From a virus (taxonomy: Duplodnaviria > Caudoviricetes): a stretch of DNA of 64,000 nt. The DNA is taken from positions 32,001 to 96,000 of IMG/VR virus record IMGVR_UViG_3300031867_000015; one strand, given 5' to 3'. Made by a program: the position numbers and the translations under genes. Within the stretch, counting starts at the first letter, position 1, and every line of letters starts with the position of its first letter. Positions 9,467 to 55,667 of the stretch are shown in pieces. The notes beneath the pieces are model-generated. The model saw only the letters and a program-made list of their open reading frames with translations. It did no database searches and was not told the origin of the DNA.

Positions 9467-9676
9467 GGGGTAAATTATATATTTTTTTCATTTAACTAAT
9501 TCTCTTATCTGATTCTGAACATTCTTTAATTCATTTTGAATTTTTACATCTGAGATAGAATTGATAATAGAATCAAGTTTGACAATAATATCATTTACAT
9601 TCTGAGAATTTGCGTACTTTACCTTGTTATTCAACACATTCTTAGTAAAGATACAATTTCCATTTTCTTTTCCTCC

Positions 9677-10021
9677 TTAATTTTTAATAAGACCAAGCTG
9701 AATCATAATACAAGCATCAACTCTGTTCATAGTCTCATCGTCTACCTTGCCTATATACTGACGAAGTATCGTTTTGTTGACTGTTTGTATTTGTTCTGCT
9801 AAAGCTGTGGATTCTTTGAGAAGTCCTCCACTTTTAATTGTTGTATGTATTGGTAATGTTTTTTTATTCTTTGAAGTCAATGGTATTACCTGTACCGTTG
9901 GTGCGTGTGCATTACCAATATCATTCTGAATAATTAATACTGGTCTGAGTCCACCTTGTACGGAACTGTGTTCGTCAAGGATGGGTAGCCTTGCCATATA
10001 AATACTACCTCTTGTAAGCAT
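9677..10021 (-). CDS. PemK/MazF family endoribonuclease toxin
   Basis: RGSIYMA...VQGGLRPVLIIQNDIGNAHAPTVQVIPLTS...EQIQTVNK. Confidence 0.9.
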   Translation of the reverse strand: MLTRGSIYMARLPILDEHSSVQGGLRPVLIIQNDIGNAHAPTVQVIPLTSKNKKTLPIHTTIKSGGLLKESTALAEQIQTVNKTILRQYIGKVDDETMNRVDACIMIQLGLIKN

Positions 10022-10043
10022 TTAATATCCTCCTTGTAATTAA

Positions 10044-10072
10044 ATTATAGAACAGATGTTCTTATTTGTCAA
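10044..10072 (-). promoter_or_regulatory. sigma-A promoter with LexA (SOS/Cheo) box in the spacer
   Basis: TTGACA(10072-67)-N17-TATAAT(10049-44); GAAC-AGAT-GTTC at 10050-10061. Confidence 0.75.
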
Positions 10073-10132
10073 TAGTAGATTGATGGAAATTATGTTATAA
10101 TTTAATGGTAATTATAATTATTCTGTGTTCAC

Positions 10133-10210
10133 TTAGTGTCGAGAACGTGAACGTAAATATTTTTCTCTTTCAATGTTATAATACTTTTTTATAACATCAT
10201 ATCCGAGATT
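10133..10210 (-). pseudogene. displaced, diverged copy of the recombinase 3' end (predicted TnpB guide region)
   Basis: translates NLGYDVIKKYYNIEREKYLRSRSRH*; the resident gene ends [22 protein letters not shown]. Confidence 0.8.
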
Positions 10211-10330
10211 GAACCATTTGTCTTGTAATAAGACTTCTTTCTTGCTTCAACGTCCTCGCAACCTACTAACTCCACAAGCGTAAATTCCGATAATTCCTAC
10301 CGTACTAATTGTTTATTAGACTGCTAATAA
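10209..10330 (-). ncRNA. TnpB omega-RNA scaffold / IS200-IS605 right end
   Basis: GTACGGTAGGAATTATCGGAATTTACGCTTGTGGAG...GAAGCAAGAA...GTCTT/AAGAC hairpin...GGTTCAA; typical of TnpB 3' ends. Confidence 0.7.
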
Positions 10331-11428
10331 TCCTTGTTTAAGAATATTCTTAGCCGCATTAATATCCCTATCATGTTTTGCACCGCACTCAGGACAAGTC
10401 CATTCTCTTACAGATAAATCCTTAGTCTCAGGATTTATACAACCACAACAACTACACGTTTGACTACTTGGACAAAACCTATCTATCTTTGAAATAGTCC
10501 TACCATACCAATCAGCTTTATACTGCAACATCCTTACAAACTCAGACCATGAACAATCTGATATGGACTTTGCAAGGCAATGATTTTTAACCATGCCTGA
10601 TACGTTCAAATCCTCTAAACAGATTACATCATATCTACGAATTAATTCAGTAGAGAGTTTTTGTAAGAAGTCTGTTCGCTGATTAGTTATCTTGTCCCAT
10701 GCTCTTGCTAATCTGATTCTTGCTTTGTCCCAATTGTTACTACCCTTTGACTTTCGGGATAGCTGTCTTTGTAACATAACAAGTTTCTTTTCTGATTTGG
10801 CAAGATACTTGGGACTTGATATTTTATCTCCATTTGATGTGATAGCAAAATCTTTAATACCGAGGTCAATGCCTACATTGCAATCAGTCCTTGTAAACGG
10901 TTCGTAGTTCTCTTGCTCTACTAAAACAGAACAATAATATTTACCACTTGGAGTTTGACTTATTGTAGCTGATTTGATTTTACCGTCAAACTTTCTGATT
11001 CCTCTTACTTTAACCCATTTGAGTTTAGGAAGTTTTATTTTGCGATTATCAAAATTAACTTCTATTGTAGGTCTGCCAATATAATTACAATTTGTTTTAT
11101 AAGACTTGCGATTATTTTTCTTAGACTTAAACTTCGGGAATCCTTTGTGTTCCCTAAAGAACTTTTGATATGCCGAATCGAGATTAATAACAGCATTATC
11201 TAAAGCAAATTTATCTACTTCTTTTAACCATTCGTACTCAGATTTGAGTGTGCGATTTTTGTAATTATTGACATCAATTTTAGACAAAGTTATTTCTTCT
11301 GTTTTGTACTTATTTATTTTATATGCTAAACATTGATTATACACAAATCGTACACATCCAAAAGTTTTCTGTATAAGTAACTCTTGTTCTTTATCTGGAT
11401 AAAGTCTGAATTTATAACCTTTTAACAT
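10316..11428 (-). CDS. tnpB: RNA-guided endonuclease TnpB (IS200/IS605)
   Basis: N-terminal [19 protein letters not shown]; Ruv[19 protein letters not shown]; Zn finger CSCC/CPEC; no tnpA nearby. Confidence 0.95.
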
Positions 11429-12374
11429 ACTTTTCCTTTTCTACCTCAAAATATTTCTTTATAACATTAAGACCGAGATTCATATTCATATCTATATTCT
11501 TTTTAATACTTTCAAAATCCCCACAATAACGACTTGTTGTAACAAGATTGCTGTGGTTTAAATCCCAGTTCAAGAACTGCATAGCCGCTGTGTGAGCCTG
11601 TCCCATATCGCCATACATTTCTTGGAAAAGCTGTTCAACTTTATTGGAATATAATTTTCTCAATGAATGGGTAGCGTATCTTACTTTACCATCTGTGCAG
11701 TTTTCTCTACCTTTAAGCTGTATACCCAAATCATCTACTAACTTTTTTGACATAAGATTATAGATTCTTGAATAACTTAATGGGTCAAGAATTTTATTTC
11801 CGTTCTCATCAAGTTCATACTGGAAGTCACCATTAATTTTTAAAGGTTTACCAGTCTTAGGGTCTTTAAGTTTGCGATAGTTTTTATATCCACCGTCAGA
11901 AATAATGAGCCAATCAAGCGGAGAAAAATCACCACTCCATGTTACCATAAGTACACACATCTTTATAGCATCATTGATATACATAGTACGTGGCTTTCCT
12001 GTTTTCAATTCTGAGAATAAACAGCTTTCACGGAACTTGTTATGCTCATTTAAAAAATCTATCCTCTTGATTATTCTTGCATCGGAGCATCTTACTCCCC
12101 AGTTTGCCTGTGTTACAAAGAATAATGCATCTCTGAATCCTTTATAACCACCTTGTTTGAAACAGGTTTCAAGTACCTGATTAAACACTTCTTCTGGCAA
12201 AGAATCCATGCCTATCTTTTCAGCCCTACGTTTTTCAAGTTCTTTGATTCTCTGATAATCTCCGTCCTGTATGTTTACATCGGGAACAAGGTCATCGAAA
12301 TCAATATCATCATTACCTAATCGGTCTGATATGTCAATTACCTGACATTCGTTTTCTTTTAATTTATGTATCAT
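11412..12374 (-). CDS. tyrosine recombinase/integrase
   Basis: GVRCSD (R), ELKTGK (K), HSLR, LNHS...TTSRY (H, Y). Confidence 0.88.
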
Positions 12375-12390
12375 ATTATCCTCCTGTCTA

Positions 12391-12481
12391 TTGACTTTAT
12401 GGGTTATTCGTGTTATAATAAAAACGATAAAACTTATCGTTTCTATGTTTAGATTATATCATAGAACACGATAATTGTCAA
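12391..12481. promoter_or_regulatory. face-to-face sigma-A promoters with a central palindrome
   Basis: + TTGACT-N17-TATAAT at 12391-12419; - TTGACA-N17-TATAAT at 12481-12453; AAACGATAA-AAC-TTATCGTTT between them. Confidence 0.6.
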
Positions 12482-12552
12482 GTGTTTATAGACATAAATT
12501 TTATCATGTTCTATGATATGTATTTGTTTATTTTCTACAAAGGGGTGATTGT

Positions 12553-12768
12553 ATGCCGAGAAGTGAAGCACAGAAAAGAGCAGACAAAAAATACATTGCT
12601 AAAACGTATAAGCGTTATGCTATTAATACAAGACTTGAATACGTTCCGACAATCGAAAAGTATATGAGTGAACACAACTTTACATCTTCATCATCTTTCT
12701 TTAATACCGCTGTCAAATATATTATTGAAAATAATATAGATATAAGTGGGATAAAAGAAAAAGAATAA
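12553..12768 (+). CDS. small ribbon-helix-helix/Arc-like DNA-binding protein
   Basis: MPRSEAQKRADKKY..KTYKRYAIN pattern; only clear + strand gene in the left arm. Confidence 0.65.
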   Translation: MPRSEAQKRADKKYIAKTYKRYAINTRLEYVPTIEKYMSEHNFTSSSSFFNTAVKYIIENNIDISGIKEKE

Positions 12769-12776
12769 TTGTCTTA

Positions 12777-12812
12777 CCCTCAGTCAAATGACTGAGGGAT
12801 TTATTTTTTTTT
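12777..12812. terminator. intrinsic terminator between convergent genes
   Basis: CCCTCAGTCA-AA-TGACTGAGGG plus T-tract. Confidence 0.8.
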
Positions 12813-13359
12813 AATACGAATCTTCCATATCACACAGTATATCACTCTGAGTTATAGGCTTATCCCAAATAGTTTCATTGATAGATATTACGAACTTTGC
12901 CGTTTCTGGATAGCTGTCTCTTGAACATTCGATGAAATGATATACGTCCTCAATGTTATATGCTTCATAGTTCATGGGCTTTATTTCCGTCCCCACTTCT
13001 CCCTTTGGAATACAGTACGCATTAAATGTCAATGTCACAACTGGCATCTGCTTTTCGTGTGAACTGTTATAAGCGTATCGTGTAAGGATATTACTTGCAT
13101 CTACGGCAGTAACCATTCCATCATAATTTGTGTCTGCAAGCCAACGCTGTGTTGATGTGAACGAGCGTTCATTCCCAACTGAAATACTCGCATATTCAGT
13201 AAGTACCATTGAAGCATCAATACCATCCACTCTACCATCAAGATTAACGTCATATCGGAGTGTCCCCATATCATGCTGTCTTGCGTGTGTGGTCATTGGT
13301 GTTGCCATACCTATTGCAAGCATGGCTGATAAAATCATTGTTGTTTTTTTCATAATCAT
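12811..13359 (-). CDS. secreted dockerin-domain protein
   Basis: signal peptide; two repeats DVNLDGRVDGIDASMVL and DTNYDGMVTAVDASNIL. Confidence 0.85.
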   Translation of the reverse strand: MIMKKTTMILSAMLAIGMATPMTTHARQHDMGTLRYDVNLDGRVDGIDASMVLTEYASISVGNERSFTSTQRWLADTNYDGMVTAVDASNILTRYAYNSSHEKQMPVVTLTFNAYCIPKGEVGTEIKPMNYEAYNIEDVYHFIECSRDSYPETAKFVISINETIWDKPITQSDILCDMEDSY

Positions 13360-13381
13360 TTCTCCTTTAATTAATATTGTT

Positions 13382-15175
13382 TTAAGCGTTAATGCTTAGT
13401 AAAGCCTGTGTGTTGTTTATTCCACCAAGATAATACTTTCTATTACCTATTATTTTGTCATACTCTCTTTCGCCTGAGAAACTATCAACAACTTTCTTTT
13501 CTTCCTCATTCATCTGCTTGTATGTCTTTGTACCAAAATCAAAGGGTAGCCATCCACGATTCTTTCCTACATAGATATTATATTTCTGAATTAGTTCTGG
13601 ACAGTTGAAAGTTATATGAACACTACCCTTTAAGTACAGATTGATGGTAAAGTATTTAAGAGGAATGTTCTTTGTAACTCCCTTGTCTACGTACTCCTTC
13701 ACTGTACTGTAAATATCTACGTCAGCGGTCATGTTTCCATCAAAGTAATTGAGAATACGCTCTATGTCGGAAAGTCTTTCATTTAACTTGTATAAATCCA
13801 AGTGACCAAAGATTGAATCATAAAGACCATAGAACGGCATAATAACCTTCTTGCCAATCTTGTGACCAATGTTAGTTTTCCATGCGTTATAAAGGTATTT
13901 AGAGTTATCTGAACAAGCATAATCAACAGTCATTTTATCAAACATCTTTTCAATCTCATTCTCAATGCCTGTTTTTACCTTGCTTTTCATTTCCACAAGT
14001 AGATTCTTGATATTAAATTCGGAGAAGTCATACTCTGAAAATGTCTCTACTTTCGCCCTGTACTGTTCCTGTAACTTAGTTGTGAGGTTTCCAGTGAACT
14101 TTGGATTTGAAAACAGTGCCCTCCAATACTTGTAACGGACTGCCTTGACATATTTATTAATGGTCATCTTATCTTTTCCATAGCCATCTGTAAGCTGTAT
14201 AATGGGTGTGGGGTATCTATCTTCTGTATCAAAAGAACTTGAAAGATAAGGTTTCATTCGTTCAAAAGAATTAATAAGTTCAATTCCTGATTTGATTTCC
14301 ACATTGTATTTATTAACAACTGACTTTAAATAATCTGTAACATCAAGTGCAGTTATTTCTTCTGCCGTAGGTTCTTCGTAGTGTTCTTCCTTTTTGAGTT
14401 TATCGAATATAGAATCATCATTATCATTAACACTCATAGGAATGTTTACATAAACCATAGCAACTTCTACATCTGTCTGACGTTCTGCGTTATTAAATTC
14501 TCCGCTATAATATTCTATATTTGCATTATACTCATTCAGTATCTTGATAAGTTCTTTGCGTGTCTCTGTGTAGGGATTTCTGATAGTCTCCGCATTAAGT
14601 AAGCACACTATCTGTCCTCCATACTTCTGAATTTCCAATGCCTTTAACAAATGCTTATCTCCATTACTGAATGGTGGATTCATAATGATAACATTGTACT
14701 GCTTGTATGCTGTAAAGGTAAGAAAATCATCATGAACAAGATGCACGTTTTTTCCCTTTACTTCTTTACGTTCTGTGTCAATCGCTCTCAGTCTTGAATT
14801 GTCTGGTTCTGGAACAGGAACATACTGTCTAAGTTCTTGATTATAATACTTATAATTTTCACTCCATGAATCAAAGTCATTGTACTGCTTTGTTATCTTC
14901 TTCTTTTCGTCAAGCAGTCTATTAGAATTTTCCTCAGAAAAAGTATACAGAAATATCTGTCTCAGATTGTTGTCAATCTCTATGCAGTCTATATCAAGCT
15001 TTCCATCAGTTTTGCGATTAAGGTATCTTACTATATCTCCCTTGCCTACTGATGGTTCAAGAACCGTATTAACATAATTCCAATTCACCTTTGAATACAT
15101 CATCTGAATAAGATTCTCAGGTGTAGGATAGAACTCTGATGTATTTTTATCCTCTACATAATTAACTATCTGCAT
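13382..15175 (-). CDS. DNA amino-methyltransferase with DUF4942-like C-terminus
   Basis: FYPTP, VLEPSVGKG (motif I), IIMNPPF (motif IV), C-terminal YLKGSVHITF. Confidence 0.85.
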   Translation of the reverse strand: MQIVNYVEDKNTSEFYPTPENLIQMMYSKVNWNYVNTVLEPSVGKGDIVRYLNRKTDGKLDIDCIEIDNNLRQIFLYTFSEENSNRLLDEKKKITKQYNDFDSWSENYKYYNQELRQYVPVPEPDNSRLRAIDTERKEVKGKNVHLVHDDFLTFTAYKQYNVIIMNPPFSNGDKHLLKALEIQKYGGQIVCLLNAETIRNPYTETRKELIKILNEYNANIEYYSGEFNNAERQTDVEVAMVYVNIPMSVNDNDDSIFDKLKKEEHYEEPTAEEITALDVTDYLKSVVNKYNVEIKSGIELINSFERMKPYLSSSFDTEDRYPTPIIQLTDGYGKDKMTINKYVKAVRYKYWRALFSNPKFTGNLTTKLQEQYRAKVETFSEYDFSEFNIKNLLVEMKSKVKTGIENEIEKMFDKMTVDYACSDNSKYLYNAWKTNIGHKIGKKVIMPFYGLYDSIFGHLDLYKLNERLSDIERILNYFDGNMTADVDIYSTVKEYVDKGVTKNIPLKYFTINLYLKGSVHITFNCPELIQKYNIYVGKNRGWLPFDFGTKTYKQMNEEEKKVVDSFSGEREYDKIIGNRKYYLGGINNTQALLSINA

Positions 15176-31998: not shown

Positions 31999-32027
31999 TT
32001 GACAAGGAGTAAAATGTATAGTATAAT
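31999..32027 (+). promoter_or_regulatory. sigma-A promoter of the rep-like gene
   Basis: TTGACA-AGGAGTAAAATGTATAG-TATAAT. Confidence 0.8.
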
Positions 32028-54578: not shown

Positions 54579-55667
54579 ATGAAAACATTTGAAATAAATG
54601 AAATGGCAAATTGCCGTAGAGATTCAGTAAACAAGAATCTTCACTCAACATCTCCCATCGTAGAGACTTTTTCTGCGCTTGTTAAGGGTGAGTCTATTGA
54701 GAATATCAAGGACACCAACGGTGTTAAGTGCGGTGATAGATGCGTAACAGCTATTAAGGAACTTAACGCAAGAGCAGAATCAGGTGATGTTTCTGCTATT
54801 TCCGAGATTAACACTATCAGAACCTATGTTGTAAATCCTCTGCTTCTTGAAGAAATCAAACTGCTTGGCTTCTTTGGTGGTTACGAGAATCTTGGATATG
54901 ATGAAACAATTGAGCGTAAGATTATCAAGCAGAGTGTAAACACAAGAGGACAGGCTCTTAATGGTGATGTGCCTTTCAGCTTCAATTATGCTGACAAGTA
55001 TACTGTTCCCTCTACATCCCTGAGTGCAGGTTATGAGGTAGATTACCGTAAGGCACAGTTTGGTGATATGTCTGCTGAGAATATTCTTATTGAAAACATC
55101 AAGACAGATATGAGAAACAAGGCGGCTTCTTATGCGTTCGACAATGTAATTAATGCAGTAAATAATGCTACAATTAAGAACGCTGTAGTAGGCGTAACAA
55201 GAGCAAATGTTCAGACAGTTATCAACAAGGCTCGTCCTTTTGGTAGGGTAACTCTCGTTGGTGATACATCTGCTGTTATCAAGCTTAATGATATCGCCAC
55301 ATATGCAGATTCACAGGCTACACCTTACATGAACATTTCTCAGGAGGCTATGAATGAGATTGCTAAGAACGCATACGTTTCAAATATCATGGGTGCAACA
55401 ATCTACGGTATGGATAACGCTTATGACGTTAGCAAGCTTAATGCCGCAGGTACATGGTTTGATAAGGTTGCAGATGACAGATATATCTATGTAGTTCCTA
55501 CTGGTGTTACTTCACCTGTTCAGCTTTGGACAAGGGGCGGTCTTACATCTATGACTGGCACTGATGTTACAACTGGTAGACTGCTTACAAGATATGACCT
55601 TGAAGTAGCCGCTGATGTAGCAAAGGGCGAAGAATATAAGATTGGTCTTATTGACACTGTATCATAA
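54579..55667 (+). CDS. major capsid protein
   Basis: 362 aa, position, biased codons, followed by a strong terminator. Confidence 0.75.
   Translation: MKTFEINEMANCRRDSVNKNLHSTSPIVETFSALVKGESIENIKDTNGVKCGDRCVTAIKELNARAESGDVSAISEINTIRTYVVNPLLLEEIKLLGFFGGYENLGYDETIERKIIKQSVNTRGQALNGDVPFSFNYADKYTVPSTSLSAGYEVDYRKAQFGDMSAENILIENIKTDMRNKAASYAFDNVINAVNNATIKNAVVGVTRANVQTVINKARPFGRVTLVGDTSAVIKLNDIATYADSQATPYMNISQEAMNEIAKNAYVSNIMGATIYGMDNAYDVSKLNAAGTWFDKVADDRYIYVVPTGVTSPVQLWTRGGLTSMTGTDVTTGRLLTRYDLEVAADVAKGEEYKIGLIDTVS

Follow-up and report, generated by a model that had tools for sequence, protein, structure and literature searches.

The DNA analysed here is a 64,000-nt window (the whole stretch under study; positions 32,001 to 96,000 of the IMG/VR record IMGVR_UViG_3300031867_000015) that forms part of a 115-kb virus record (Caudoviricetes) rated complete. 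On its minus strand, a tnpB gene and its omegaRNA lie in the 3′ end of a gene for a Cre-like tyrosine recombinase, and the recombinase gene end occurs there twice, once joined to the start of tnpB and once, in diverged form, beyond the omegaRNA. We examined this locus as a candidate RNA-guided homing cassette, an idea put forward in an earlier sequence-only reading of the same DNA. The features, numbered from the first letter of the window and given in the order of transcription, are as follows (TAM, target-adjacent motif).

12453..12481, minus strand: putative sigma-70-type promoter (12/12 hexamer matches, 17-nt spacer, TG extension; a consensus match only)
11412..12374, minus strand: gene of a Cre-like tyrosine recombinase, 320 aa, the invaded host gene (phrog_216, family conservation, predicted fold)
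11479..11482, minus strand: TGAA, TAM-like motif of the resident gene (Met-Asn codons), immediately 5′ of the insertion point
11429..11478, minus strand: replacement (spare) tail, fused to the tnpB start codon (alignments)
10316..11428, minus strand: tnpB, ISDra2-type, 370 aa (Pfam, phmmer)
10209..10366, minus strand: omegaRNA scaffold, overlapping the tnpB 3′ end and ending in GGTTCAA at 10215-10209 (covariance model R1)
10189..10208, minus strand: guide template, the first 20 nt past the right end and at the same time the beginning of the displaced native tail
10133..10210, minus strand: displaced native recombinase tail (the remnant), 25 codons plus stop, open

The recombinase gene end, the GGTTCAA motif and the remnant had been placed at these positions by the sequence-only reading, and all were confirmed, as was its statement that tnpB begins inside the recombinase tail. 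The tnpB ATG falls within the last recombinase codons and tnpB overlaps the recombinase stop, the last 4 recombinase codons being the tnpB start region in another frame; about 107 nt separate the end of tnpB from 10209. No terminator-like site was found between the recombinase gene and tnpB, and the promoter at 12453..12481 is the likely source of a transcript predicted to carry tnpB and the omegaRNA as well.

The invaded recombinase and the TnpB nuclease

The 320-aa protein is a divergent Cre-like tyrosine recombinase. It was matched by the integrase family phrog_216 of PHROGs (E = 4.6e-9); the window protein itself lies below Pfam detection, and PF00589 was matched by 13 of 36 family members. 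The catalytic residues R129, H236, R239, H274 and Y283 are invariant in 36 sequences. Fold comparison of an AlphaFold model (predicted local distance difference test [pLDDT] 85) gave Cre, Tn1549 Int, XerH and lambda Int as the best matches, and the top matches were all tyrosine recombinases (probability 1.00, template modelling score about 0.4). Searches recovered 61 homologues of the recombinase, tblastn against the GenBank phage collection gave no match, and a six-frame search of the whole 115 kb revealed no paralogue in the phage genome, the remnant being the sole second match.

The segment beyond the catalytic Tyr is conserved throughout the family, with M296, M298, L300, G301, V304 and E312 nearly invariant, and the C-terminal helix of residues 302-319, which the spare-tail region encodes, is predicted with pLDDT >90. 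Because the tail is conserved and ends in a confidently predicted helix, a spare tail would have something to rescue. In Cre and related enzymes, what follows the Tyr packs on the neighbouring subunit, and loss of the tail would for this reason probably matter to the recombinase.

The tnpB product scored above the cut-offs of PF12323 (HTH_OrfB_IS605), PF01385 (OrfB_IS605) and PF07282 (TNB), and phmmer aligned it to ISDra2 TnpB (8BF8, 8EXA and 8H1J; E = 4e-91), in the case of 8BF8 over residues 3-369. The claim that its RuvC D/E/D residues are intact was borne out: D188, E272 and D355 align with D191, E278 and D361 of ISDra2 TnpB, where we take E278 and D361 to be catalytic positions in addition to D191. 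D191 belongs to the active site of that enzyme (PMC8612924). The zinc-ribbon cysteines C325, C328, C345 and C348 (CxxC...CxxC) are also present.

The nearest tnpB was found at locus L007, in an element with an ordinary left end and a different guide. Against this copy (89% identical in protein, 85% in DNA) the ratio of nonsynonymous to synonymous substitution rates (dN/dS) of the window gene was 0.062, indicating strong purifying selection, and between the two occupied phages, that of the window and a sibling, tnpB differs by 1 nt. Similarity between L007 and the window covers 11442-10238 only; since it starts no earlier than about 11442, the 45 nt ahead of the tnpB start are not transposon DNA. 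The start codon is GTG in L007 and ATG in the window, where it is formed at the junction with a recombinase Tyr codon. None of the tnpB relatives that are 86-91% identical adjoins this recombinase.

Element ends and the empty site

As Rfam yielded no match at E ≤ 1 in 9500-12600, the omegaRNA was modelled from relatives. The resulting covariance model of the right-end RNA (R1) is based on 21 relatives and excludes both this phage and its sibling. R1 matched 10366-10209 over its full length (131 bits, E = 3e-22), and 14 of its 28 consensus pairs show compensatory changes among the relatives. Because the match ends at 10209, the guide starts at 10208.

In the relatives, a hairpin-bearing left end lies 45-140 nt upstream of tnpB, and a GC-rich hairpin that terminates the omegaRNA doubles as the right-end hairpin of the transposase. 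A model of the left end (R2), which scored 46-51 bits on relatives outside its training set, found no left end in 9500-13500 with filters off; its best match (13 bits, E 0.14) lies elsewhere. No match to the Y1 HUH transposase TnpA (PF01797) was obtained at E ≤ 1 anywhere in the 115-kb genome, in agreement with the earlier statement that tnpA is missing. The lack of TnpA and of a left end, together with the degenerate right-end hairpin, means that peel-and-paste transposition is predicted to be impossible for the window cassette. The cassette is moreover flanked by a diverged duplication of about 57 nt, whereas a canonical IS200/IS605 insertion makes none.

The closest homologue of the recombinase, P0001, is 96% identical, 323 aa in length and ends in a tail of the NLGYDV type. 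The contigs that encode it (L003-L005) hold an uninterrupted gene and no tnpB, and share with the window the gene order methylase, dockerin protein, small open reading frame (ORF), recombinase and PemK. In alignment, the window is L003 plus an inserted block that is bounded by an 8-nt stretch shared on both sides, and the closest relatives are about 94-95% identical to it on both flanks. The occupied allele was present in four assemblies, namely the window, L002, ERZ27256863 and SRR9036512.

Two gene tails, the guide and a hybrid allele

The spare tail and the remnant are identical at 12 of 19 residues and 41 of 57 nt, the remnant repeating the last 19-25 recombinase codons in diverged form from 10208 on. 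Translated comparison (tblastx) of the two flanks of the sibling phage gave E = 9e-8. Their similarity, already pointed out in the sequence-only reading, is not due to chance, because 60 family members have a tail homologous to both.

Comparison with the empty allele of L003 revealed different affinities for the two copies. The spare tail, which departs from the native tail from 11472 onward, is identical to this allele at 36 of 52 nt, and the remnant at 46 of 52. The residues of the remnant are those of the P0001/L003 tail except for two, and the nucleotide differences between them are mostly synonymous (dN/dS 0.07); the remnant thus continued to code as it diverged, and its displacement is fairly recent. 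Since the body of the gene is about 97% identical to that of L003 in protein, a spare tail with only 36 of 52 matches must come from a more distant allele. On the same comparison (about 97% for the body, 69% for the spare tail) we rejected the possibility that a tandem duplication had diverged in situ. A different genealogy of remnant and gene body was also considered on the basis of tail-versus-body synonymous distances; these were too noisy at 22-25 codons and are not used as evidence.

The guide template has no second exact copy within the window. In the empty allele of L003-L005 it is matched at 25 of 25 positions, beside TATGAA, and other recombinase lineages match it at 17-22 of 25. In the resident copy the TAM is retained and guide positions 7, 8, 9, 11, 22 and 25 are mismatched, and the right-end junction reads TCAA, not TGAA. 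A double mismatch at any place within positions 1-12 is enough to stop ISDra2 TnpB from cleaving (PMC10097598). With four mismatches in a 12-nt seed at the one site and TCAA at the other, the carrier's own near-targets, the resident copy and the right-end junction, should be spared, and immunity of the carrier is predicted. Elsewhere in the genome the guide has a single further near-match, at 54885-54905 of the window (plus strand), with 1 mismatch in the first 12 nt (position 4), further mismatches at 15-16 and the 5′ flank GAGAA instead of TGAA; it is probably fortuitous, about 0.8 such matches being expected by chance at that stringency.

The TAM can be compared with those of related elements. 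TGAA was found in 9 of 12 distinct left-end contexts (TTGAA in 7), 12-18 nt 5′ of the left-end hairpin, where the cleavage site and the TAM are expected. The motif is close to the TAM of ISDra2, TTGAT (PMC8612924). In the recombinase gene, ATGAA is conserved in all 9 alleles examined, as Met-Asn/Lys codons.

Besides empty and occupied alleles, a hybrid was found. Contig L087 lacks tnpB, and its recombinase gene is of the resident type up to protospacer position 11 and of the remnant type from position 22, the switch lying in the sole 10-nt run that is identical between the two copies. Because TnpB cuts 15-21 bp from the TAM (PMC8612924), the cut would fall in the very block where the hybrid switches. 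The exact hybrid protein is encoded on four contigs from four independent metagenome samples, and the hybrid-allele phage groups on both flanks with the occupied clade, not with the L003 clade. The hybrid may have arisen either as a pop-out by recombination of the two copies or through aborted homing, by short-tract repair of a TnpB break in a cassette-free relative; under either origin, this tnpB-free allele should resist the guide. The hybrid-allele contigs (L087 and L117-L120) also carry upstream a Cro/CI-type HTH_3 gene of 74 aa (59 aa in L117) that replaces the 71-aa ORF of the window, and a mosaic boundary is marked near the recombinase start, about 940 nt upstream of the insertion point, where they cease to resemble the window.

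The sequence-only reading had proposed that the guide targets a TnpB-free recombinase allele, that the resident gene escapes through mismatches at 7, 8, 9 and 11, and that the cassette carries a recoded replacement C-terminus. The mismatches were found as described, with those at 22 and 25 in addition. A replacement tail is indeed present; it is better described as the tail of a foreign allele than as a deliberate recoding. On three points sequence comparison could have told against this homing and replacement-tail interpretation, and each favoured it: relatives with a TnpB-free NLGYDV allele exist, with TGAA directly 5′ of a perfect 25-nt guide match; the model built solely from relatives extends the scaffold to 10209 and does not end it short of the proposed guide; and the left-end model that detects left ends in relatives finds no canonical one here. 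The interpretation is thus supported as far as sequence goes.

A proposed home-and-rescue mechanism and its rivals

We consider it probable that the locus is an RNA-guided home-and-rescue cassette that acts between co-infecting phages, by homing or by exclusion. In this mechanism, a TnpB/omegaRNA cassette without transposase and left end sits in the last 22 recombinase codons, where a foreign C-terminal helix, fused in frame and joined to the tnpB start codon, would keep the recombinase whole and have tnpB transcribed and translated together with it. The native tail, pushed to just past the omegaRNA scaffold, would template the guide there. On co-infection with a cassette-free relative, TnpB-omegaRNA would recognise TGAA and the native tail and cut 15-21 bp downstream; the break would then be repaired from the cassette-bearing genome, whereby the cassette is copied in (homing), or alternatively it would destroy the rival genome (exclusion). 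The carrier would escape through the seed mismatches in its resident gene and the TCAA at its right-end junction. It is established that TnpB cuts element-free sites and that the occupied copy then serves as the source of repair (PMC8612924; bioRxiv 10.1101/2023.03.14.532601).

Several points weigh against this mechanism. Cleavage, RNA and homing of the window element are predictions from sequence. The GC-rich terminal hairpin of the relatives is replaced in the window by a 5-bp AT-rich stem, the minimum-free-energy fold of the scaffold on its own is no better than that of shuffled sequences (z = -0.6), and the target carries ATGAA as its TAM where TTGAA is the commonest form. Only one recombinase lineage was found to have the cassette beside it, no other recombinase locus with tnpB except that of the sibling being present in the metagenome, viral and genome collections. 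A donor of the spare tail was not found, the nearest family tails matching it at 40-42 of 52 nt, and exact-pattern scans of IMG/VR for the spare tail recovered the sibling phage only. With a single lineage and no donor, there is no direct sign of spread between lineages. Finally, any IS605-family insertion automatically yields a guide with a match in the empty site, so that what sets this locus apart is the loss of the left end, the fusion of a spare tail and the mismatches in the seed.

This automatic match would fit equally with a stranded relic, as would the absence of tnpA and a left end, the degenerate right-end hairpin, the restriction of the cassette to one phage clade and the tnpB-free hybrid allele, which shows that the cassette can be lost. 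In that case, an IS605-family element would have inserted at TGAA by means of TnpA acting in trans, and later recombination with another allele would have exchanged its left end for a functional tail because the gene was needed, leaving a cassette that hitch-hikes and does not home. We regard such an origin as unlikely, given that tnpB is under purifying selection with its catalytic and zinc residues intact, that the omegaRNA scaffold is otherwise intact at 131 bits, that the start-codon junction is exact and the carrier copy differs precisely in the seed, and that similar left-end-less cassettes with flanking diverged gene ends exist at unrelated loci (L064, described below).

Exclusion without any copying, or another domesticated use, is a further reading that the anatomy would accommodate just as it does homing and rescue. 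TnpB would then destroy competitors or hit some other target, and the spare tail would repair collateral damage to the carrier. Related lineages with 17-22 of 25 guide matches are in keeping with this, in that some rivals might be cut and yet have too little homology for conversion, and a kill-the-competitor outcome has been described for phage homing endonucleases (review PMC13565253). The identity of the closest relatives on the flanks is, however, ample for repair from the carrier, and the hybrid allele appears to have arisen from the two copies by conversion or recombination, which makes a pure weapon quite improbable in our view. That the locus is an assembly artefact, the genome being a metagenomic assembly, or that the two tails are similar by chance is hardly credible, because four independent assemblies agree on the junctions, four samples contain the hybrid allele, the one run of identity between the two copies, of 10 nt, is shorter than assembler k-mers, and both copies are homologous to the family tail with the tblastx E-value given above; the artefact was rejected on the independent assemblies.

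The home-and-rescue mechanism may be taken one step further, although more tentatively. The locus could represent a natural RNA-guided gene drive, in which a cassette without transposon parts spreads only by cutting the cassette-free allele in co-infecting relatives and carries a cleavage-resistant spare end; the hybrid would then be a drive-resistance allele produced by short-tract repair at the TnpB cut.

The ISDra2-type TnpB/omegaRNA systems of IS200/IS605 elements (Karvelis 2021, PMC8612924; Nakagawa 2023, PMC10097598; Meers 2023, bioRxiv 10.1101/2023.03.14.532601) resemble the window cassette in the protein, the overlapping omegaRNA, the guide past the right end, the TTGAA-like 5′ motif and the element-free target site. 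They differ in that the window cassette lacks TnpA and a left end and has a degenerate right-end hairpin; in that their target is the donor joint on the sister chromatid, whereas that of the window cassette would be an allele in another phage genome; and in that the window cassette carries a replacement gene end and has a flanking diverged duplication, which IS200/IS605 transposons do not make. TnpA-independent drive by TnpB of IS605 elements has been shown in multicopy plasmids (Mears et al. 2025, PMC11870625), and a 2026 review names co-infecting phages as a theoretical target of 'non-restorative homing' (PMC13565253). The plasmid drive is similar in spreading independently of TnpA by cutting element-free copies of the same replicon; it involves complete insertion sequences with both ends and no gene rescue, whereas here the replicon is a phage and the target gene is kept whole.

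The layout of the gene ends has its closest parallel in the mobile ORFs (mORFs) of fungal mitochondria, which make gene hybrids in atp6, atp9, cox2 and nad3 of Glomus (Beaudet 2013, PMC3630166) and, as cited there, in atp6 of Allomyces macrogynus (Paquin 1994, PMC45324, via PMC3630166). The arrangement of a foreign and a displaced native C-terminus around protein endonuclease ORFs in fungal mitochondria is also described in PMC6279837. As in the window, the nuclease gene lies within the 3′ portion of the host gene, to which a foreign C-terminus is joined in phase, and the native C-terminus is displaced downstream and is closer to uninvaded relatives than the inserted one (46/52 versus 36/52 here). 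However, mORF nucleases are protein-guided enzymes of the LAGLIDADG or GIY-YIG type, for which the displaced end plays no part, whereas the window nuclease is TnpB and the displaced end would template its guide.

The free-standing homing endonucleases of T-even phages, such as SegF, SegB and Mob, practise intronless homing, according to the overview in PMC13565253. As far as that overview describes them, they act on co-infection, their carrier is protected by differences in a conserved neighbour gene and flanking markers are co-converted or excluded, much as proposed here, but they are protein-guided, usually intergenic and, in the same account, without a duplicated gene end. IStrons, which combine TnpB with a group I intron (PMC10690162), likewise place a TnpB element in a gene without destroying its function; they restore the gene by RNA splicing, whereas the window gene would be restored at the DNA level by the spare end. 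An IStron reading of the window was rejected, because an intron is absent: tnpB follows the insertion point after no more than about 50 nt of coding sequence, and the Rfam search was negative. Engineered home-and-rescue or cleave-and-rescue drives, which are synthetic Cas9 systems in insects, direct a guide against the wild-type allele of a needed gene and supply a recoded, cleavage-resistant copy. The window cassette shares this logic and would be their natural equivalent in phages, based on TnpB. Separate publications thus exist on TnpB homing and on the spare-gene-end layout; a full-text search of open-access papers and preprints found no paper on a TnpB cassette with a spare gene end, and none that combines the two.

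A second cassette of the same design is present at L064:2230-3860 (IMGVR_UViG_3300045988_147927, 203 kb), where a tnpB 50% identical to that of the window follows a gene for a 266-aa Toprim-domain protein. The last 31 codons of the Toprim gene, its stop and its 3′ flank recur in diverged form right after the right end (tblastx E = 2e-10, 44-codon stretch), and the left-end model gave no match at this locus. A weaker duplication of the flanks (tblastx E = 3e-5, 33 codons) surrounds the tnpB at L045:2250-3850, which still has a recognisable left-end hairpin. L130 (60-1650) and L131 carry a tnpB 90% identical to that of the window beside a tRNA-like 3′ half, and a second left-end-like fragment after the right end suggests insertion into or beside another copy of the element; their apparent flank duplication was considered as gene rescue and rejected, being this second fragment.

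Left ends were also doubtful at other loci. The left-end match in L032 is weak (26.7 bits, E 0.0025) and L033, L042 and L132 have none at E ≤ 0.01. The GC-rich right-end hairpin is also missing from L032, L033 and L042 but retained in L132, whose tnpB lies between ORFs of 185 and 113 aa, the latter starting inside the right end. At L018-L024, L036 and L037, the shared element reaches about 507 nt upstream of tnpB, with a left-end match at about -510 and room upstream for a small tnpA, and these are probably complete elements.

Downstream of the remnant, the window carries a PemK/MazF toxin gene with its own promoter. This gene follows the recombinase in every relative examined, down to 62% identity (window 9677-12374; L003, L112-L117); no antitoxin-like ORF was called between the two, which form a conserved two-gene module.

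Most natural tnpB genes have no adjoining transposase, which raises the question of how such solo copies manage to persist and to spread. The locus described here offers a concrete and testable answer, in which nuclease and RNA would act as a homing element that stands on its own, takes its target specificity from its flank and repairs with its spare end the gene that it interrupts; the empty, the occupied and the hybrid, predicted resistant, states are all available as sequence. If this is true, it would link transposon-derived RNA-guided nucleases to the homing-endonuclease lifestyle in phages, and the cassette would be a natural counterpart of engineered rescue drives, natural resistance alleles included.

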